Assembly: GCA_944320415.1 (NCBI GenBank)
Contig: CALUHJ010000016.1
Location: 13,728 to 77,727, forward strand
Source of the DNA: an uncultured Bacteroidales bacterium
GTDB taxonomy: Bacteria > Bacteroidota > Bacteroidia > Bacteroidales > P3
Direction: 5' to 3'
DNA length: 64,000 nt
Positions 53,506 to 62,629 of this stretch are shown piece after piece; position 1 is the stretch's first letter; each line of letters opens with the position of its first letter. The notes under the pieces are model-generated. The model made no database searches. It was not told where the DNA came from and saw only the letters and a list, made by a program, of their open reading frames with translations. Made by a program: the position numbers and the translations under genes.

Positions 53506-55614
53506 ATGAAAAAGACAATTATGACAGTTATTGCAGCGGGAGGACTTATCCTTTCGTCCTGTTCGGACAAGCAGGCTACGACGGATAACCCTCTATTGCA
53601 AAAGTGGGACACGCCGTTTGAAACGGCACCATTCGAGAAGATAAAGGTTGAACACTATCTTCCTGCATTCAAGGCAGCCATCGAAGAGCATGAGAAAGAG
53701 GTTAGGCAAATCATCGACAACAAGGAGAAACCTACGTTTGACAACACCATCGCAGCCTTGGACTATAGCGGCAGGACGCTTGCGAGGATAAGCGGAGTGT
53801 TCTTCAACATGATGGCCGCAAACACCTCGAAGCAGTTGCAGGAGGTAAACCAGGAGGTAGGCCCCATGCTTGCTACGCATTCGGACAACATATCCATGAA
53901 TGCCGACCTGTTCAAGAGAGTAAAAGCGGTATGGGACGACAGGGTCAACCAGAAGTTGAACAATGAACAGAGCGCCTTGTTGGAAAAGACCTACAAGGAC
54001 TTTGTGCGTTCCGGTGCCTTGCTCGATGCAACCAAGCAGGAGGAGTTGAGGAAGGTTAACGCTGAGCTTACCAAGCTGGCAGCCCAGTTCGATGCCAACC
54101 TGTTGGAGGAAACCAAGGCCTATCAGTTGGTCATAGACAAGAAGGAGGACTTGGCCGGACTGCCTCAGGGAGAGATAGACAAGGCAGCGCATCTTGCCAA
54201 GGAGTCAGGCAAGGAAGGCAAATGGATATTCACCCTCGACAATCCTTCCTTCATTCCTTTTGTCACCTATGCGGACAACAGGGAGTTGAGAAAGGAGATA
54301 TTCAATGCAAGGGTTAACCGTTGCAACCACGGCGGCAAGACGGACAACAACGCCTTGGTGGCACAGATGGCCGAGTTGAGGGCAAAGAAAGCCAACCTGT
54401 TGGGATATGAAACATTCGCTCATTATCAGTTGGAGGAAAGAATGGCAAAGGAACCTAAGGCGGTGTTCAAGTTGCTGGAGGACTTGCTCGGATATTCCGT
54501 TCCTGTGGCTAAGAAGGAGGCTGAGGAGTTCCAGAAGCTCTTGTCCAAGGATGAAAAGGGAGCCAAACTGGAGGCATGGGACATGTATTACTATGCTGAA
54601 AAGGTACGTCAGCAGAAGTATAACTTCGATGCAGAGGCTACAAGACCTTACTTTGAGATAAACAACGTCAGGGAGGGTTGCTTTGCAGTGTTGAACAAAC
54701 TGTACGGTGTGACCTTCACTCAGAGAGACGACATATCGGTATATGCCGATGACGTATTGGCCTTTGAAGCCAAGGATTCGCAGGGTAAACATTTGGGCGT
54801 GATGTATTGGGATCCTTATACAAGGGCAAGCAAGGGTGCCGGTGCATGGTGCAACGAGTATCGCGGACAATACAGACAGAACGGACAGAACGTAAGTTCT
54901 ATAATTACCGTATGCTTCAACTATGCCAAGAATCCTAACGGCAAGACCACCCTTACGGCCGAGGAGGCAGCGACCATATTCCATGAGATGGGTCATGCCA
55001 TCCACCAGCTTTTGTCCGACTGCACCTATCCGTCCGTGTCTGGAACGAACGTTCCGAGGGACTTTGTAGAGTTGCCTTCGCAAATATTGGAACACTGGTG
55101 CCTTGAACCGCAGGTGTTGAACATGTACGCCAAGAACGACAAGGGAGAGGTTATTCCAAAGGCTATGGTTGACAAGATGGCCGAGGTTGGAACATTCAAT
55201 CAGGGCTTCATGTTCAGCGAGTTGTTGGCAGCGTCTTATCTTGACATGTGTCTTCACTCCATAAAGGCAGGCGAAAAGGTATCGACTCAGGCATTTGAGA
55301 AGAAGGCCATGGAGTCCATAGGCATGATTGCCCAGATACCGCCACGCTATCGTTCCACTTATTTTTCTCATTGCTTTGGCGATGGAGGTTACAGCGCAGG
55401 TTATTATTCATATACATGGAGCGAATGGTTGGATGCAGACGCATATCAGGCCTTCAAGGAAACGGGAGACATATTCAATCCTGAGGTGGCAGCCAAGTTC
55501 AAGAAGCTGTTGAGCAGCGGAGGTACCGAAGACGCCATGAGCATGTATGTGGAGTTCAGAGGAAAAGAACCTGACATAAATGCTTTGTTGAAAAACAGAG
55601 GCATGATAAAGTAA
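53506..55614 (+). CDS. dcp: M3-family peptidyl-dipeptidase
   Basis: 702 aa with a lipoprotein-type signal (GLILSSCS) and the zinc motif FHEMGHAIH. Confidence 0.9.
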   Translation: MKKTIMTVIAAGGLILSSCSDKQATTDNPLLQKWDTPFETAPFEKIKVEHYLPAFKAAIEEHEKEVRQIIDNKEKPTFDNTIAALDYSGRTLARISGVFFNMMAANTSKQLQEVNQEVGPMLATHSDNISMNADLFKRVKAVWDDRVNQKLNNEQSALLEKTYKDFVRSGALLDATKQEELRKVNAELTKLAAQFDANLLEETKAYQLVIDKKEDLAGLPQGEIDKAAHLAKESGKEGKWIFTLDNPSFIPFVTYADNRELRKEIFNARVNRCNHGGKTDNNALVAQMAELRAKKANLLGYETFAHYQLEERMAKEPKAVFKLLEDLLGYSVPVAKKEAEEFQKLLSKDEKGAKLEAWDMYYYAEKVRQQKYNFDAEATRPYFEINNVREGCFAVLNKLYGVTFTQRDDISVYADDVLAFEAKDSQGKHLGVMYWDPYTRASKGAGAWCNEYRGQYRQNGQNVSSIITVCFNYAKNPNGKTTLTAEEAATIFHEMGHAIHQLLSDCTYPSVSGTNVPRDFVELPSQILEHWCLEPQVLNMYAKNDKGEVIPKAMVDKMAEVGTFNQGFMFSELLAASYLDMCLHSIKAGEKVSTQAFEKKAMESIGMIAQIPPRYRSTYFSHCFGDGGYSAGYYSYTWSEWLDADAYQAFKETGDIFNPEVAAKFKKLLSSGGTEDAMSMYVEFRGKEPDINALLKNRGMIK

Positions 55615-55648
55615 GACAATACATTGCTGAATAAATGATAAAAGGAAA

Positions 55649-55679
55649 GGGGAAACGATTAGTCGTTTCCCCTTTTTTT
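55649..55679 (+). terminator. dcp terminator
   Basis: Stem GGGGAAACGA (55649-55658) / TCGTTTCCCC (55663-55672), followed by a 7-nt T-run. Confidence 0.8.
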
Positions 55680-55748: not shown

Positions 55749-55756
55749 TAACTTTG
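55749..55756 (+). promoter_or_regulatory. -7 box TAacTTTG (defence-like operon)
   Basis: Consensus match 70 nt after the dcp terminator and 41-77 nt before the candidate starts. Confidence 0.5.
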
Positions 55757-55832
55757 CACAAGAGCGGGTTTCTGTATCCGATAGAACTGCGGATATATGG
55801 ACTTTCTCGTTCCCTTTATTCAAATAAAGAAG

Positions 55833-56867
55833 ATGGATAACGTAACTGGAGAAGTTGACATACAGGAAAATAGATTGAAAGCGCTTTCACCGGATTTGCT
55901 CACCACCTTGCTCAAGGACCATACGACGAGTAAGGATGGAAAACAGTGTAATATTTTCTGGGCTACTTCCGACTATGAACATCTTGGTAAAGGTTACGAA
56001 TATTTTTCTCAAATTCTTCCCGAACTTATAACCGGAGAAAACGGCAATGTTGTCATGCCTCGTGTCCTAAAACACAGAGATACTCAAAGCATACGTTCCC
56101 GTGAGATGGCGGAGGTGTTCACTCCTTCATGGATATGTAATGCGCAGAACAATCTCATTGACGAGGCATGGTTTGGCAGAAAGGATGTGTTCAACAAGGA
56201 AGTGACAGCCGAAGACGGTACGCATACATGGGAAGTCAATACGGATAAGATTACTTTTCCAGAAGGCAGGACATGGAAAGATTATGTACGTGAAAATCGT
56301 TTGGAAATCACCTGTGGGGAGGCCCCTTATCTGGTGAGTCGGTATGATACGACTACCGGAACATTCATTCCACTGGAGAAGCGTATAGGATTGCTTGACC
56401 GTAAACTCCGTATTGTCGGTGAGAATACCACGACAACGCGTGAATGGCTGGAGGCAGTCAAGGATGCTTACAAAAGTATATATGCTTATGAATGGCAGGG
56501 TGATAATCTGCTCCTTGCCCGTGAAGCCCTTTTGTTTTCTTTCATTGAATACTATCAGAACAAGTTCGGCAAAAAACCGCAAATGAAGTCCATCAACCAT
56601 ATAGCCTATATAATCTCTTGGAATGTGTGGCAGATGGACGGTTTGAAAGGAGTTGTTCCGGAAAGCTGCGGAGAGCGTGTACGTAAGGAAAAGGAATTGT
56701 TCGGTACGGTTGAAAGACGGAAGCCGTGCGAAGGTTGTCTTAAGAATGACATAAACAAACACAACGGTATTTACTGCATTATAAAGGACTGGCGGACAAA
56801 AGACAAGACAACAGGCAAAAAGGGAAAGAAAATACGATTTATAGACCTTATAAATGAAAAAGCATGA
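55833..56867 (+). CDS. hypothetical protein with N6-MTase-like motifs, coupled partner of the helicase-MTase fusion
   Basis: 345 aa from ATG 55833, or 356 aa from ATG 55797. Motifs: EVFTPSW (FTP at 56118-56126), LEITCGEAPYL (56301-56333), YAYEWQGDNLLLAR, NVWQMDGL, and a Cys cluster CGE-x17-CEGC-x10-C. No NPPY/DPPY motif was seen. A TAacTTTG box lies at 55749-55756. Confidence 0.75.
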   Translation: MDNVTGEVDIQENRLKALSPDLLTTLLKDHTTSKDGKQCNIFWATSDYEHLGKGYEYFSQILPELITGENGNVVMPRVLKHRDTQSIRSREMAEVFTPSWICNAQNNLIDEAWFGRKDVFNKEVTAEDGTHTWEVNTDKITFPEGRTWKDYVRENRLEITCGEAPYLVSRYDTTTGTFIPLEKRIGLLDRKLRIVGENTTTTREWLEAVKDAYKSIYAYEWQGDNLLLAREALLFSFIEYYQNKFGKKPQMKSINHIAYIISWNVWQMDGLKGVVPESCGERVRKEKELFGTVERRKPCEGCLKNDINKHNGIYCIIKDWRTKDKTTGKKGKKIRFIDLINEKA

Positions 56868-59800
56868 GATTCAAATCGTCCCTGAAACTAAAACTGATCT
56901 ATGTGTTCCGCATCAACGATGAGGCACATTACGGATGTCTGAAGGTTGGCGAAACTACCTGTGATGATGATAATGTGTCAGAACTTACGCCCAACAGCAA
57001 TGCTCTCAATGAAGCGGCCAGACAACGTATCAATCAGTACACGCAGACGGCAGGTATCGCATATGATTTGCTTTATACGGAGTTGGCGCTTTACGACCAT
57101 GGAGGAGAGTCTTGTTCGTTCAACGACAAGGACGTGCACAATGTACTGAAGCGTTCGGGAGTCGAAAAGAAAATCTTCGATACGGTCAACAAAGCCAATG
57201 AATGGTTCATAACCGATTTGGAAACCGTCAAGCGAGCCATTGCTGCAGTAAAGAAGGGCAGACAGTCCCTTAATACCTCAGAAGTGACTCGGGAATATTC
57301 CCCGATTGTATTCCGACCGGAACAGCAGGAAGCCATCAACAAGACAAAGAAACAGTTTAGGAAAGGCAACCAGATGCTCTGGAACGCAAAGATGCGTTTC
57401 GGAAAGACCCTTTCTGCTTTGCAGGTTGTCAAGGATATGGAGTTTCAGCGTACCCTGATTCTGACCCATCGCCCTGTGGTCGATGCCGGATGGTTCGAGG
57501 ACTTCGGAAAGATATTCTACGACCGCAAGGATTTTGTATACGGTTCCGGAAACAAGAAGGGTGAAAGTTACAACAATCTTGAACAACAAGCGAAAAGCAA
57601 AGGGCTTCATTATATTTATTTTGCGTCAATACAAGACTTGCGCGGTTCCGAACAAGTAGGCGGTAACTTCGACAAGAACCATGAAGTATTTGCCACCGAC
57701 TGGGACTTGATTATCGTAGATGAAGCTCACGAAGGAACCCAAACAGAACTGGGCAAGGCTGTCATGGGAGAGTTGGTCAAGAACAAGACAAAGGTTTTAC
57801 GTCTGTCCGGTACTCCGTTCAACCTGCTGGATGATTTCAAGGAGGATGAGATATATACATGGGACTATGTTATGGAACAGCGTGCCAAGATGACTTGGGA
57901 CGAACTGCATTTCGGCGACCCCAATCCGTATGCCTCACTGCCAACACTCAATATATATACCTACGATTTGGGGCGGCTGCTTCATGAATTTACAGATGAA
58001 GATGTCGCCTTTAACTTCAGGGAGTTTTTCCGAGTCAATGAATCCGGTTGCTTCTGTCATGAAAAAGATGTATTGGCTTTTCTAAACCTTCTTACCAAGG
58101 AGGACGAGAACAGCCTTTACCCTTATGCCAACGAGGAATACCGCAATATTTTCCGCCATACACTCTGGAAGGTGCCGGGCGTGAAGGAAGCACGGGCATT
58201 GAGTGCCATGCTCCAGACACATCCGGTGTTCCAACATTTCAAGGTGGTTAATGTAGCCGGTGACGGTGATGAGGAAAGCCGTGATGCCTTGAAAGCTGTG
58301 GAAGAGGCTATCGGAGAAAATCCGGATGCCACACGAACCATTACCCTTTCTTGCGTAAGGCTGACGACCGGAGTAAGCGTTAAGGCCTGGACTGCCGTAT
58401 TCATGTTGTCCGGCTCCTACAATACAGCCGCATCCGGTTATATGCAGACCATATTCCGCGTACAGACTCCCGCCATCATCAACGGACGTATGAAGGAACA
58501 GTGTTATGTATTCGACTTTGCTCCTGACCGTACCCTTAAAGTGATTGCCGAAACCGCCAAGATATCGGCCAAAGCCGGCAAGACCTCGCAAAGCGACCGC
58601 GAAGCCATGGGCGAGTTCATCAATTTCTGCCCAATCATATCCATTGAGGGTTCAAAGATGAACCCGTTTGACGTTTCCCGTATGCTCGAGCAGTTGAAAA
58701 AGGTATATGTGGAGCGTGTTGTCCGTAACGGGTTTGAAGACAACAGCCTGTACAATGACGAATTGATGAAGATGGATGATTTGGACTTAAAAGCGTTCGA
58801 TGACCTGAAAAAGATTATCGGACAGACCAAGGCCATGCCCAAGACCAATCAGGTGGACATCAACAGTCAGGGACTGAACAATGAGGAATACGAGGAAAAA
58901 GAGAAGCTGGAGAAGAAACCCAGAAAGGAGCTTACAGAGGAAGAGCGGAAAAGGTTGGAAGAACTGAAAAGTAAAACCAAGAACAGGGAAGCCGCCATTT
59001 CCATTCTCCGTGGTATCTCCATCCGTATGCCTCTGTTGATTTATGGTGCGGAAGTGAGTGATGAGAATCAGGAAATAACGATTGACAATTTCGCTTCTCT
59101 CATTGATTCGCAGTCATGGGAAGAGTTCATGCCAAAGGGCGTGACCAAGCAGAAATTCGACAAGTTCAAGAAATACTATGACCCGGAAATATTCTGTGCC
59201 GCCGGAAAACGAATACGTGCGATGGCCCGTGCCGCGGACAAATTGAGCATAGAGGAAAGAATCGAACGTATTACGAACATATTCAGTACATTCCGCAATC
59301 CTGACAAGGAAACGGTGCTTACTCCGTGGCGCGTGGTAAACATGCACCTCGGTGATTGTCTGGGAGGTTATAACTTCTATGATGCGGAGTATCGGAATAC
59401 GATTCCCGAACCACGGTTTATAGACAAGGGAGAGGTTACCGCAGAAGTATTCTCACCTGATGCCCGTATTCTGGAAATAAATTCCAAATCCGGACTTTAT
59501 CCGCTCTATATGGCATACGGCATTTACCGGGCAAGGGTCAAGGCGTCTCTTTTTGCCGTAGAAACGGTGGAGGAACAGCAGGCCGTATGGGATAAGGTAA
59601 TAGCCGAAAACATCTTTGTCATCTGCAAGACCCCTATGGCAAAGAGTATTACCAAACGCACCCTTGCCGGATTTCGTGAAGCTAAAGTGAATACAAGATA
59701 TTTTGAAGATTTAATCAACCGGATTAAGAACAAACCAGAGAACTTTATAGCCAAAGTTGTCAAAGGTCGTTCTTACTGGAAAGCCATAGATAATGATAAT

Positions 59801-60850
59801 ATGAAATTCAATGCAATAGTAGGTAATCCGCCGTATCAGGTTATGGATGGTGGTGATTGTACATCTTCTACAGCTGTATATCAATTATTTATAGAACAAT
59901 CTTGTGCTATTAATCCCGACTACATATCTATGATAACCCCATCACGATGGTTAACTAAACAAGGTCGCGGCCTATCTGAAGAATGGGCATCTAAAATGCT
60001 TTTATGTAATCATTTTAAATTTCTTAAGGACTATCTTCAGGCATCTGATTGTTTCCCTGGCGTAGAGATTAAAGGAGGTATTTGTTATTTTCTATATGAA
60101 GGAAACTATAATGGAGAATGTGTATATGCTATAAGCCAAAATGGTAAAGTTAGTACAATATCTACCTTTTTGGGGAAATGGGGAATGGCTATTAGAGATA
60201 TATGTGCTGATAAAATATTGAAAAAAATATCTGATATAGAAGGTATTACTTATTATGATGCTACATCTTTTTCTATATTAGTGAATGCACGACACCATTT
60301 TGATCAAGGGGCTCAATTAAGTACAAGTTGGAGGGGATTTCATGTAACAAAAACAAATGAGTATAACATTAAATGTTATCTTAATAAACAACTTCTTTCA
60401 GAGGGATTTGGTTGGGTTAAACTCTCAGATATTCCCAAAAATCTCCAATCAATAAATTACCATAAGATATATATATCAAAAGCTTATGGCGCAGGAGAAA
60501 ATTTCCCTCATCAAATTATTGGTGTACCTTTTTATGGAGAACCTAATAGCGTTTGTACAGATACATACATAGTTATCATGCCCAAAGGTGGGTTTTCTTC
60601 CAAAGCTGAAACAATGAATGTTATTACTTATATGAGGACTAAATTCTTTAGATATTTAGTCCTCATATTAAAGAAAACTCAAGATGCGCCTCGTGATGTG
60701 TATAAATTCGTTCCTCTACAAGATTTTACTTCTAATAGTGATATTGACTGGAGTAAGTCGGTTGTAGAAATAGACCGTCAATTATATGCGAAGTATAATC
60801 TTACCGACGAAGAAATTGCTTTTGTTGAATCAATGATAAAGGCAATGTGA
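56864..60850 (+). CDS. GIY-YIG/T5orf172-like nuclease + SF2 DEAH helicase + gamma-class N6-adenine methyltransferase/TRD fusion (Type ISP-like)
   Basis: 1328 aa. ATG 56864 overlaps the upstream stop. N-terminal motifs: LIYVFRINDEAHYGCLKVGETT, RQRINQY, NEWF. Helicase motifs: FGKT (57401-57409), DEAH (57719-57730), LSGTP, QTIFRVQT. MTase: ILEINSKSGLYPLY (59468-59509), NPPY (59825-59836), ITPSRWL. C-terminus: LYAKYNLTDEEIAFVESMIKAM. Confidence 0.85.
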   Translation: MRFKSSLKLKLIYVFRINDEAHYGCLKVGETTCDDDNVSELTPNSNALNEAARQRINQYTQTAGIAYDLLYTELALYDHGGESCSFNDKDVHNVLKRSGVEKKIFDTVNKANEWFITDLETVKRAIAAVKKGRQSLNTSEVTREYSPIVFRPEQQEAINKTKKQFRKGNQMLWNAKMRFGKTLSALQVVKDMEFQRTLILTHRPVVDAGWFEDFGKIFYDRKDFVYGSGNKKGESYNNLEQQAKSKGLHYIYFASIQDLRGSEQVGGNFDKNHEVFATDWDLIIVDEAHEGTQTELGKAVMGELVKNKTKVLRLSGTPFNLLDDFKEDEIYTWDYVMEQRAKMTWDELHFGDPNPYASLPTLNIYTYDLGRLLHEFTDEDVAFNFREFFRVNESGCFCHEKDVLAFLNLLTKEDENSLYPYANEEYRNIFRHTLWKVPGVKEARALSAMLQTHPVFQHFKVVNVAGDGDEESRDALKAVEEAIGENPDATRTITLSCVRLTTGVSVKAWTAVFMLSGSYNTAASGYMQTIFRVQTPAIINGRMKEQCYVFDFAPDRTLKVIAETAKISAKAGKTSQSDREAMGEFINFCPIISIEGSKMNPFDVSRMLEQLKKVYVERVVRNGFEDNSLYNDELMKMDDLDLKAFDDLKKIIGQTKAMPKTNQVDINSQGLNNEEYEEKEKLEKKPRKELTEEERKRLEELKSKTKNREAAISILRGISIRMPLLIYGAEVSDENQEITIDNFASLIDSQSWEEFMPKGVTKQKFDKFKKYYDPEIFCAAGKRIRAMARAADKLSIEERIERITNIFSTFRNPDKETVLTPWRVVNMHLGDCLGGYNFYDAEYRNTIPEPRFIDKGEVTAEVFSPDARILEINSKSGLYPLYMAYGIYRARVKASLFAVETVEEQQAVWDKVIAENIFVICKTPMAKSITKRTLAGFREAKVNTRYFEDLINRIKNKPENFIAKVVKGRSYWKAIDNDNMKFNAIVGNPPYQVMDGGDCTSSTAVYQLFIEQSCAINPDYISMITPSRWLTKQGRGLSEEWASKMLLCNHFKFLKDYLQASDCFPGVEIKGGICYFLYEGNYNGECVYAISQNGKVSTISTFLGKWGMAIRDICADKILKKISDIEGITYYDATSFSILVNARHHFDQGAQLSTSWRGFHVTKTNEYNIKCYLNKQLLSEGFGWVKLSDIPKNLQSINYHKIYISKAYGAGENFPHQIIGVPFYGEPNSVCTDTYIVIMPKGGFSSKAETMNVITYMRTKFFRYLVLILKKTQDAPRDVYKFVPLQDFTSNSDIDWSKSVVEIDRQLYAKYNLTDEEIAFVESMIKAM

Positions 60851-61720
60851 AAGGTAGTATTTATAGGATATAGTATACAATTTATGGAAACAACTGTTGT
60901 TGGCGATTTCTTTCATTGGGGAGAATGTACCTATAATAATGAAAGGATTTTTCCCGATACTATGATATCTTATAGTTGTGCCTAAAAAGAAATACAAATC
61001 CCTTGCCTTAACGAATTCATCAAAGTATTTCTCTTTGACTTTTTTGCATGCAATTTCTTCATTTCCTTGACATTTTTTTAAACAATTCCAATACAACATA
61101 CCTACTTCCCAATCTTCTATCATCAATTTCCTTTGAATGCCATCATCTGTCGTAAAGATGTAAGAAAACTCAAAGGGAAGTTTCTTTACAATTTTAAATA
61201 TTTTCCGCGTCTCATTTTCTTCTTCAAAAAGAGATAATTGTGCTTGCCTTGCTAATATTTCATTTAATTTCTTTTTATCCCAATCTCTTTCGGAGCATTC
61301 TTCCCATACAAAGTCTAATACTTCTTTTGGTTTTAAAACAGCCAAAGAAGTTCCTATATTAGAATCCTTAGCTTCAGTAATAAGTTCCTCCATATTGGTA
61401 TAAATGTGCTTTAATGCAATTTTCTTTCGCTCGGCCCAATTATTTTTTGTATCGATAAATCTACCGATAGTCAATTCGCCATCAATATTTGCAGGACGAA
61501 AACTTTCTTTTCGAAAATCTTTTGTGTTTTTTACTATGTCAATAGACACCCAATGCCATTTCTTATATCTTTTTGTGTAATCAAGTTTTCTATATGGAAT
61601 AGGATATATTCTTATCCAAGAACCATCTTCCAAAAAACCGGCTGTACATACCAACTCATCATATTCTTTTGATAGCGTCGGATAAGTTTTTACGGCTATT
61701 AGAATATTTTTTACAGACAT
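60830..61720 (-). CDS. hypothetical protein (296 aa), second gene of the DUF488 operon
   Basis: AT-rich ORF. Its N-terminus is KTYPTLSKEYDELVCTAGFLEDGSWIRIYPIPYR. It starts 3 nt after the DUF488 gene stop. Its 3' end overlaps the convergent 1328-aa gene by 21 nt. Confidence 0.7.
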   Translation of the reverse strand: MSVKNILIAVKTYPTLSKEYDELVCTAGFLEDGSWIRIYPIPYRKLDYTKRYKKWHWVSIDIVKNTKDFRKESFRPANIDGELTIGRFIDTKNNWAERKKIALKHIYTNMEELITEAKDSNIGTSLAVLKPKEVLDFVWEECSERDWDKKKLNEILARQAQLSLFEEENETRKIFKIVKKLPFEFSYIFTTDDGIQRKLMIEDWEVGMLYWNCLKKCQGNEEIACKKVKEKYFDEFVKARDLYFFLGTTIRYHSIGKNPFIIIGTFSPMKEIANNSCFHKLYTISYKYYLSHCLYH

Positions 61721-61723
61721 ATT

Positions 61724-62629
61724 TTACGAAATTGCTTCAAATTCAAAGTTATCAGACAACGATAATAAAGCATTTGCAACACGAGAACGATGACATTGAA
61801 TGGGATTCTTTTCAAAGCATGTTAATGCAATTCTTTCATATTTATCAAGTAAAGAAAGTATCTTCAAAAGAGATTCTTTATTGCTTTTTAAAGTTGTTTT
61901 TTCATACTCGTCAAATAACATATCATAATCTTTTTGTGACTTCAATTCTTGACGTTTTTGTGATTCAATGCCAAGTTCTGGAATATGTATATATGCAATA
62001 TTTAGACCTTTACAGGCTTTTTCCAATTGAGTTTTAGAAAAACCGTACTTCTGACTGTAAGCATTTTTCCGGACATCACAAAGTAGATGAATGTCATTTA
62101 TAATCAGCTTTTTTAAATAAGTTTCTATTGTTAGACCCTCATATCCTATCGTAAACAATTTACTCCCTTCTATATGGCATTTTTGTCTGTTTACAATTTC
62201 CATTTCCTTTTCTGATAAAATTTCTGTTGCTATACGACTATTTATGGCGTAAAATGGAAATTTTATATAAGTATATTTTATCAAATCAGCTTGAGGCATC
62301 TTTTCATATTTGGATTTAAGTTCAAGGATTGCCTGTTGGTCGAATAAATTCAGTGATGCCAAATAATTGTAATTATATGATTTCACCGACTCAATAAATC
62401 GACCGTTATCTGTTTCTTTTATTGTTAGCAAGCCTTTGTTTCTCAATACAATAATATCCTGATTTGCATGAAAAGAAAAGCACCCATAATAGTAAGGGAC
62501 AAAGTCATAAGCTTTTGTTTCTTGCCCTCTTGAAAAGATAAAAAGCAACTTTTGTAGTTGTTTGGCTGTCAATTTACCACCAAACACTTCCAATATGGCT
62601 AATAATATCTTCCTTCTATAATATAGCAT
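61724..62629 (-). CDS. DUF488 domain protein with an uncharacterised N-terminal (wHTH/SocA-like?) domain
   Basis: 301 aa. The C-terminal half matches the DUF488 pattern (FTIGYEG, LLCDVRKNAYSQKYGFSK, IAYIHIPELG). The N-terminal ~140 aa contains LQKLLFIFSRGQETKAYDFVPYYYGCFS. A gene-strand TAatTTTG box lies at 62653-62660. Confidence 0.75.
   Translation of the reverse strand: MLYYRRKILLAILEVFGGKLTAKQLQKLLFIFSRGQETKAYDFVPYYYGCFSFHANQDIIVLRNKGLLTIKETDNGRFIESVKSYNYNYLASLNLFDQQAILELKSKYEKMPQADLIKYTYIKFPFYAINSRIATEILSEKEMEIVNRQKCHIEGSKLFTIGYEGLTIETYLKKLIINDIHLLCDVRKNAYSQKYGFSKTQLEKACKGLNIAYIHIPELGIESQKRQELKSQKDYDMLFDEYEKTTLKSNKESLLKILSLLDKYERIALTCFEKNPIQCHRSRVANALLSLSDNFEFEAIS

Follow-up and report, generated by a model that had tools for sequence, protein, structure and literature searches.

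What is encoded by a pair of coupled genes of which the larger joins a nuclease-like head, a helicase-like motor and an adenine methyltransferase in one chain, and what is the part of its small partner? This question was raised by positions 55,749 to 60,850 of a 64,000-nucleotide stretch of contig CALUHJ010000016.1 (assembly GCA_944320415.1) from an uncultured Bacteroidales bacterium, called the window here. A reading made from its sequence alone (the original prediction) had seen in this module the best candidate of the window for a new restriction or defence system. The analysis presented here suggests that it is probably an ATP-dependent restriction-modification (RM) system with a logic like that of Type ISP enzymes, in which T5orf172 serves as the nuclease and the product of the first open reading frame (ORF1) as an obligate accessory subunit.

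ORF1 (55797-56867, 356 amino acids (aa) in its longest form) and ORF2 (56864-60850, 1328 aa) are located on the same strand and are both intact. The ATGA at 56864-56867 combines the stop codon of ORF1 with the start codon of ORF2 in a 4-nt overlap, as originally read. Homologues of ORF1 are ~344 aa long and begin at Met13 of the window sequence, which makes 55833 a more probable true start than 55797. The features of the module are listed below, with the evidence in brackets.

55833..56867, + strand: ORF1, 344 aa from Met13, conserved and putatively methylase-related accessory subunit (PADLOC, synteny, fusions, hhalign)
56864..60850, + strand: ORF2, 1328 aa, predicted nuclease-motor-methylase-recognition polypeptide (Pfam, PADLOC, sequence)
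56864..57268, + strand: T5orf172 (GIY-YIG clan) head, predicted nuclease, ORF2 aa 1-135 (Pfam, invariant residues, AlphaFold2, BFVD)
57308..58753, + strand: superfamily 2 (SF2) helicase-like ATPase (ResIII), ORF2 aa ~149-630 (Pfam, PADLOC model, invariant motifs)
57401-57409, + strand: Walker A GKT (sequence)
57719-57730, + strand: DEAH (sequence)
58760..59263, + strand: lysine/glutamate-rich linker, coupler-like region, ORF2 aa ~633-800 (sequence)
59264..59797, + strand: helicase-linked methylase N-half (TPWRVVNM; ILEINSKSGLYPL; IFVICKTPMAKSI), ORF2 aa ~801-978 (Pfam, invariant motif residues)
59798..59863, + strand: catalytic motif IV (KFNAIVGNPPYQ), ORF2 aa 979-1000, with NPPY at 59825-59836 (sequence, Pfam, hhalign to M.TaqI motif IV)
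59864..60703, + strand: hypervariable cassette, motifs V-VIII and target-recognition domain, ORF2 aa ~1001-1280 (column identity, GC content, Mantel test)
60704..60850, + strand: conserved C-terminal tail (VPLQDFT..SDIDWSKS..EID.QLY.KY.LT.EE..F.E), ORF2 aa 1281-1328 (conservation)

The domain reading proposed for ORF2 (GIY-YIG/T5orf172-like head, SF2 DEAH motor, lysine/glutamate-rich linker, NPPY methyltransferase and C-terminal recognition domain) was essentially correct according to Pfam and conservation, and every motif quoted for it was found in the translation. The head displayed LIYVFRI...CLKVGET (aa 11-31), RQRINQY (aa 53-59) and NEWF (aa 112-115). Taken alone (aa 1-149), it passed the gathering cut-off of Pfam T5orf172 (PF10544) marginally (20.6 bits for a cut-off of 20); the scan of full-length ORF2 gave only MUG113 for this region, below cut-off. 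Of 44 family heads, 43 matched T5orf172 at E <= 1, the best at 4.2e-05. Residues Y13, K27, G29, R55 and E113 were invariant in the family, and R55 and E113 were equated with the catalytic arginine and glutamate of GIY-YIG enzymes by motif position, without validated structural superposition. The AlphaFold2 model of the head (mean predicted local distance difference test (pLDDT) 83.8) was compared by Foldseek with BFVD, a collection of viral predicted structures, where the top neighbours were mostly T5orf172 and Bro/MSV199 proteins (probability 0.9-1.0, ~125-135 aligned columns, E only 0.01-0.1, template-modelling score 0.40-0.51). Foldseek and profile comparisons of the head with the PDB gave nothing significant, the only GIY-YIG entry listed, At-HIGLE, standing at rank 11 with E 3.5. 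These results support membership in T5orf172 but do not show that the head equals the solved GIY-YIG nucleases. Its matches were to T5orf172/MUG113 and not to Mrr. T5orf172 domains can be active nucleases with a catalytic arginine and glutamate, as described for Gp88 of ICP1 (PMC8263062).

The motor was recognised by Pfam ResIII on aa 149-319 (E 2.6e-15) and carried FGKT (aa 179-182), DEAH (aa 286-289), LSGTP (aa 314-318) and QTIFRVQT (aa 528-535). Its GKT, DEAH, SGTP and QTIFRVQT motifs, like NPPY of the methylase, were invariant in 32 family members. Firmicutes versions kept the coupler-like region, whose lysine/glutamate-rich stretch spans aa ~670-710, and so did a separate Bifidobacterium longum helicase subunit in its C-terminal part. 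Pfam Eco57I covered aa 915-1064 (E 5.7e-28, 98.6 bits for a cut-off of 25.3), including NPPY (aa 988-991) and ITPSRWL (aa 1024-1030), and hhalign aligned the methylase part with M.TaqI (query identical to PDB 1aqj_A) at E 7e-4, beginning after motif I. An Eco57I/TaqI-like, gamma-class N6-adenine methylase is thereby supported at the sequence level. The candidate S-adenosylmethionine (AdoMet) motifs X and I upstream of it, TPWRVVNM and ILEINSKSGLYPL, were invariant and also kept in distant versions; an hhalign comparison of ORF2 aa 805-983 with M.TaqI 1-100, under shuffle control, scored exactly at the null. Against all PDB chains, neither the ORF2 sequence nor a 32-sequence profile produced a match to LlaGI or LlaBIII at E <= 1, and no solved relative was found.

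The ~340-aa C-terminal region, originally suggested to be a target-recognition domain, behaved accordingly. Column identity over 57 family members was 63-89% for aa 1-1000 and 18-44% for aa ~1000-1280, and the last ~50 residues were conserved again. The nearest relatives were 90-95% identical to ORF2 over aa 1-1000 and 25-36% over aa 1001-1280, GC content dropped in the cassette from ~46% to 31-36%, and cassette divergence was almost uncoupled from that of the rest of ORF2 (Mantel r 0.11). Being hypervariable, swapped between near-identical backbones and compositionally foreign, the region behaves like the specificity cassettes of RM systems that are exchanged by recombination. Inside the 3' part of the variable region, at 60630-60668, a perfect inverted repeat of 15 nt with a 9-nt spacer was observed (ATATGAGGACTAAAT / ATTTAGTCCTCATAT).

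The partnership of ORF1 and ORF2 was confirmed. Of 80 genome loci, 78 had an ORF1 homologue directly 5' of ORF2; the two others were cut by a contig end within ~280 bp of the ORF2 start. The ORF1 stop lay -4 to +10 nt from the ORF2 start in 65 of the 69 measurable loci (4-nt overlap in 14). ORF1 co-diverged with the ORF2 body (Mantel r 0.88, p 0.001); the corresponding value for the recognition domain was r 0.12.

ORF1 itself had been left unassigned. As judged from its sequence it is a methylase-related protein: PADLOC model MTase_II (PDLC03390) matched it at E 9.6e-123, and in relatives the same domain is fused to the NPPY half of a methylase. Pfam and NCBIfam gave no match for ORF1, and its sequence and family profiles (close and diverse) found no relative among PDB sequences or in Pfam. 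M.TaqI-like motifs X (AEVFTPSW), I (LEITCGEAPYL) and II (YEWQGD) could be read in it, the ORF1-type domain displaying a canonical G-[YF]-E motif II. In contrast to an ordinary cognate methylase, ORF1 lacks (D/N/S)PP(Y/F/W), as do 102 of 108 short representatives, and no variable recognition region appeared in the family alignment. A candidate origin of ORF1 as a diverged copy of the ORF2 methylase was rejected (hhalign probability below 1%). Long forms of the ORF1 family aligned with M.TaqI from motif IV onward (probability 78%, E 1.8e-5), and a second, co-linear alignment placed AEVFTPSW on motif X and LEISCGEAPFL on motif I (probability 1%). A trimmed ORF1-type region scored 21.8 against M.TaqI 1-100 (null 11.2 +/- 2.3, maximum 20.1; reached by none of 200 shuffles), which is modest support only, since trimming was guided by the hypothesis. 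The untrimmed region found motif I of M.TaqI unaided (E 0.008). The AlphaFold2 model of ORF1 had a pLDDT of 67 with a confident core at 100-265; Foldseek against the PDB was uninformative (best E 0.1, only faint LlaGI and DrdV rows). A conserved cysteine/histidine cluster at the C-terminus (C279, C299-x-G-C302, H310 and C315 in 344-aa numbering; window 56667-56775), modelled as a beta-hairpin, is probably a zinc ribbon. This cluster displayed faint similarity to MYND-type zinc fingers (E 1-6) and was absent in the ORF1 versions of Firmicutes plasmids.

Exhaustive search yielded 1711 representative clusters of the ORF1 family at 50% identity, many of them 650-717 aa long. Here the ORF1-like domain is directly continuous with KFDxVIGNPPYQ, after which come a variable region and the tail VPLQDFT..SDIDWSKS..EID.QLYKKY, i.e. 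the tail that also ends ORF2. From NPPY onward they were homologous to ORF2 aa ~980-1328 (27-38% identity for full-span matches, E down to 6e-73); the NPPY of ORF1 relatives thus comes from the same C-half that ORF2 carries. Two natural fusions were found, P0354, composed of an ORF1-like domain and ORF2 (52% identity over ORF2 aa 21-780), and P0331, composed of an ORF1-like domain, a coupler and a complete methylase.

Arrangements were surveyed on annotated plasmids and in 80 metagenome loci. In arrangement A, a gene for the ORF1-like domain, NPPY half, recognition domain and tail is directly followed by one for T5orf172, helicase and downstream parts (~1105-1157 aa, one of 1232 aa). None of the 42 helicase proteins of this arrangement displayed NPPY, and these proteins end in an orphan methylase N-half homologous to ORF2 aa ~801-978. 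Motif I was present in all 42, the motif X pattern (FTP..VV) ~30 residues upstream of it in 39, and motif II (QVYG.APTEIIY.IA..YILGF) in all but the 1232-aa protein. Arrangement A' consists of three genes, the free-standing C-half beginning with MKFDFxIGNPPYQ behind a purine-rich stretch resembling a ribosome-binding site (five clear cases: L091, L092, L094, L100 and L104). Arrangement B, that of the window, has the ORF1-like domain alone, followed by head, helicase, coupler, N-half, NPPY half, recognition domain and tail; it was also found on Pediococcus plasmid pRS5 and on plasmids of Lactiplantibacillus plantarum and Enterococcus faecium. T5orf172 was fused N-terminally to the helicase in every arrangement seen. 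Since the NPPY and recognition module can stand on either the ORF1-like domain or the helicase-linked N-half, the methylase fold is, to judge from these architectures, naturally split at the motif III/IV junction. The family accordingly appears to have two N-half-like modules per catalytic half.

Several individual loci deserve description. In L081 (B. longum plasmid NZ_CP065398, 6854-13669), an IS256 transposase is located between the ORF1-like and the NPPY/recognition parts of the long-form gene, which appears disrupted; an intact T5orf172-helicase-N-half gene lies 3' of it. In L082 (E. faecium conjugative plasmid NZ_CP116515, 6702-14183), the module is flanked by a small helix-turn-helix regulator (5') and a DUF262 (GmrSD-like) gene (3'). 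This plasmid has an ORF2 homologue, extended N-terminally by ~110 aa, in which Pfam did not recognise T5orf172. The same ORF1 match was obtained on seven more E. faecium plasmids. L102, L123 and L145 display in-frame stops inside conserved long-form motifs (in L123 directly after GNPPY). In contrast to the clean three-gene splits, these copies resemble pseudogenes or errors of assembly. In L128 (3821-8990) the order is reversed, the head-helicase-methylase gene preceding the ORF1-like gene.

How, then, might the module work? The domain identities, the coupling of the genes, the rearrangement of modules among relatives, the swapping of recognition domains and the co-divergence of ORF1 with the ORF2 body are shown by the data above. 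Methylation, translocation, cleavage, a defence function and the role of ORF1 are what we infer for it, as follows. The variable C-terminal domain of ORF2 would read a short and probably asymmetric DNA site, at which the Eco57I-type NPPY methylase would mark adenine as N6-methyladenine (m6A) in the host. At an unmodified site, the SF2 DEAH motor would hydrolyse ATP and translocate along the DNA, whereupon the T5orf172 head would cut away from the site. ORF1 would be an obligate accessory subunit, co-translated stoichiometrically and derived from the N-terminal half of a methylase. It would not set specificity; most likely it would bind to ORF2 at the catalytic/recognition module and so serve the assembly or regulation of the enzyme.

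In logic, the closest known system is Type ISP. LlaGI and LlaBIII likewise combine nuclease, SF2 motor, coupler, gamma-class N6-adenine methylase and recognition domain in a single chain, and they share with ORF2 the single recognition domain and the location on plasmids and islands (PMC3553950, PMC4666363). The analogy drawn in the original prediction thus held for the domain order. A single recognition domain implies an asymmetric site and methylation of one strand. Three features of Type ISP are not found here: nuclease family, solitary action and detectable homology. Type ISP nucleases are of the Mrr/PD-(D/E)xK type, whereas the predicted nuclease of ORF2 belongs to T5orf172 of the GIY-YIG clan; Type ISP enzymes act without accessory subunit, whereas ORF2 has the conserved and coupled ORF1, fused to it in P0354; and no sequence homology was detected between ORF2 and the LlaGI/LlaBIII PDB chains. 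In further contrast, relatives of ORF1/ORF2 split the methylase fold between subunits.

Resemblance to other systems is more partial. ORF2 unites all parts of YeeA(DnmA)-YeeB-YeeC, i.e. an adenine methylase with recognition domain, an SF2 helicase and T5orf172, which likewise form a conserved operon associated with defence islands (PMC2731913, PMC9973331). Those are three separate proteins in the order methylase, DEAD helicase, T5orf172, with a complete MmeI-type methylase, whereas T5orf172 and helicase are fused here, the methylase is Eco57I/TaqI-like and an ORF1-like module is added; this comparison was made by description only. With Type I systems (HsdR/HsdM/HsdS), arrangement A shares the division into a methylase/specificity subunit and a nuclease-helicase subunit, and specificity likewise diversifies through recognition-domain exchange. 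The family differs from Type I in having no separate S subunit, a single recognition domain, another nuclease family and a methylase fold divided between two subunits at motif III/IV. Type IIG/IIL enzymes (Eco57I, MmeI) share the Eco57I-family NPPY methylase, the recognition domain and the conserved tail, and the corresponding PADLOC model PDLC03626 matched ORF2. Characterised Type IIG enzymes have a PD-(D/E)xK nuclease and no helicase, and they cut at a fixed distance without ATP. ORF2, in contrast, carries an SF2 motor of ~480 aa and a T5orf172 head, and the predicted motor domain argues against ATP-independent cleavage at a fixed distance.

Most rival explanations concern ORF1. It might be the functional AdoMet-binding half of a split methylase, docking in trans on the NPPY half of ORF2, whose internal N-half would be a degenerate structural or docking module, so that methylation would depend wholly on ORF1. 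We consider this rather doubtful, though several features of the family speak for it: arrangement A joins the ORF1-like domain directly to KFDxVIGNPPYQ, the free-standing C-halves starting with MKFDFxIGNPPYQ imply that assembly in trans at the motif III/IV junction occurs, and motifs X and I of the ORF1 type beat the shuffle null next to a canonical motif II, while the ORF2-internal N-half scored at the null and, on reading its sequence, lacks the acidic residue of motif II. However, Pfam Eco57I aligns from its position 1 on ORF2 aa 915 onward, whereas in the five long forms examined its alignment begins no earlier than positions 51-60 in four (3-171 in P0281). The helicase-linked N-half also has canonical motif spacing, with motifs I and II kept across arrangement-A proteins, P0331 holds both modules in one chain, the similarity of ORF1 to M.TaqI is weak in absolute terms (probability 1-10%), and hhalign found none between ORF1 and the ORF2 methylase. 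A related idea, unlikely in our estimation, is that two alternative AdoMet-binding half-domains serve the one catalytic/recognition half and that the choice of the one completing the methylase fold decides between methylation and ATP-driven restriction. If true, dual pairing would be a physical switch, or an AdoMet sensor detecting its depletion by phages, and the migration of NPPY and recognition domain between partners (A, A', B and full fusions) would be its footprint.

That ORF1 is instead a second nuclease, with for example D172...D189-R-K191 as a PD-(D/E)xK-like site and both strands cut by two nucleases, is improbable. It would account for invariant charged residues outside the methylase-like motifs (R170, D172, R184, D189, R190 and K191) and agree with the name 'restriction endonuclease' given by NCBI to Firmicutes plasmid homologues, as well as with the lack of significant structural or sequence matches of ORF1 to methylases. 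That name is generic, however, and other homologues are named 'subunit M'; AlphaFold2 placed LLDRKL in a confident helix rather than in the beta-strand typical of PD-(D/E)xK, no nuclease family matched ORF1 in Pfam, the PDB or Foldseek, and PADLOC, derived from REBASE, files ORF1 as a methyltransferase. Two existing names, 'Type II methyltransferase' in PADLOC and 'restriction endonuclease subunit M' at NCBI, would in turn suit a classical Type IIG/IIS layout like that of Eco57I, in which ORF2 is bifunctional and ORF1 the complete cognate methyltransferase for the second strand. This is very improbable, and the cognate role was rejected on motif content (neither (D/N/S)PP(Y/F/W) nor a variable recognition region) and on the absence of covariation with the recognition domain (r 0.12, against 0.88 with the ORF2 body); moreover, NPPY-bearing relatives take their NPPY from the ORF2-type C-half. 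Finally, the module might be no active defence in this host but an epigenetic regulator or a decaying relic, given that Bacillus subtilis dnmA-yeeB-yeeC conferred neither restriction nor phage protection (PMC9973331) and that some relatives are broken by insertion sequences or in-frame stops. This seems quite unlikely: both ORFs of the window are intact, catalytic motifs are invariant across the family, the turnover of recognition domains on conserved backbones implies that new specificities are still being selected for, and ORF1/ORF2 lie in a defence-island context. Homologues of DnmA-YeeB-YeeC in Vibrio crassostreae protect against some phages, according to the passage of PMC9973331 that cites this work.

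Several observations weigh against the preferred reading as an ATP-dependent, Type ISP-like RM system. The B. subtilis analogue just mentioned is one, and no experiment on any family member was found. For the head, the Pfam score is marginal and solved GIY-YIG nucleases gave no significant match, and the fold of ORF1 lacks support (moderate pLDDT, no match by Foldseek or among PDB sequences). The reading does not account mechanistically for the presence of two N-half-like modules beside a single catalytic half. No solved relative, LlaGI and LlaBIII included, was found with the ORF2 profile, so that the parallel with Type ISP behaviour is one of analogy rather than of homology.

Is the system new? 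Protein searches with ORF1 and ORF2 gave at least 8000 matches each, and relatives of ORF2 were found in at least 580 genome stretches, mostly from Bacteroidota. PADLOC, the use of which had been recommended, assigned ORF1 to MTase_II and ORF2 to REase_MTase_IIG (PDLC03626, REBASE-derived, 1359 positions; E 1.5e-63). The latter match was co-linear (ORF2 aa ~150-300 on model positions 158-303, aa 977-1328 on 1007-1359), which is why the architecture must be regarded as already catalogued as putative Type IIG; a Pediococcus plasmid protein of the same architecture matched the model at E 1e-117. Head and coupler fragments of ORF2 alone matched no PADLOC model. The combination of methyltransferase, helicase and GIY-YIG/T5orf172 has been discussed since 2009 for YeeA-YeeB-YeeC (PMC2731913), and Šišáková et al. 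(PMC3553950) had already pointed to relatives of Type ISP enzymes that have GIY-YIG nucleases and helicase subunits or domains. A paper on programmed inversions (PMC9881135) does not describe the ORF1/ORF2 family. The novelty originally claimed was thus overstated for the family, which is very common, catalogued and made of known parts; no biochemically characterised member was found among the database matches or in the papers found. The module is therefore not categorically new, but an uncharacterised variant among helicase-coupled RM systems with an unusual split-and-rejoined methylase and an unexplained accessory subunit. New here are the coupling and co-divergence of ORF1, the methylase split across arrangements, and the lack of NPPY and recognition domain in ORF1.

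The surroundings of the module were of the defence type, PDC-M19A/B adjoining it in the window and DUF262 and toxin-antitoxin genes being its neighbours on plasmids. Upstream, a strong terminator-like hairpin with a T-run (55642-55679) closes the M3 peptidase (dcp) gene, and a promoter-like box follows 70 nt 3' of it.

55749..55756, + strand: TAACTTTG, candidate Bacteroidetes-type -7 promoter box 5' of ORF1 (consensus match only)

Box and hairpin, both originally noted, are present, the promoter function of the box remaining a matter of consensus match; a sigma-70 promoter scan is uninformative for Bacteroidota-type promoters. The 90%-identity cluster of the M3 metallopeptidase (53506-55614) includes a protein of Candidatus Onthomorpha intestinigallinarum, a chicken-gut Bacteroidales metagenome-assembled genome. 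Convergent to ORF2, on the - strand at 60830-62629, are the PADLOC candidate defence genes PDC-M19B (E 1e-117) and PDC-M19A (E 2e-114; DUF488). This region has ~31% GC, and its first gene shares 21 bp at the 3' end with the ORF2 stop region. PDC-M19A/B were rejected as part of the module because they accompanied ORF1/ORF2 in only two of 80 loci (L053 and L061), and they are regarded as a separate system in the same island. Around 55.7-62.9 kb, inspection for the boundaries of a mobile element revealed neither a tRNA nor any convincing repeats at the flanks.

Gut Bacteroidota of humans and animals carry the module in abundance, and it is also found on Lactobacillales and Enterococcus plasmids. 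Because of this distribution, it probably hinders phage infection, conjugation and genetic engineering of its carriers to a significant degree, and it would be a source of m6A motifs in their methylomes. Characterised enzymes do not cover what it appears to combine, namely a translocating RM enzyme using a T5orf172 nuclease, a methyltransferase fold repeatedly split and re-joined at motif III/IV across subunits, and a conserved methylase-derived accessory subunit. With cassettes swapping on backbones that are 90-95% identical, the family may also be a good platform for the study and engineering of specificity.

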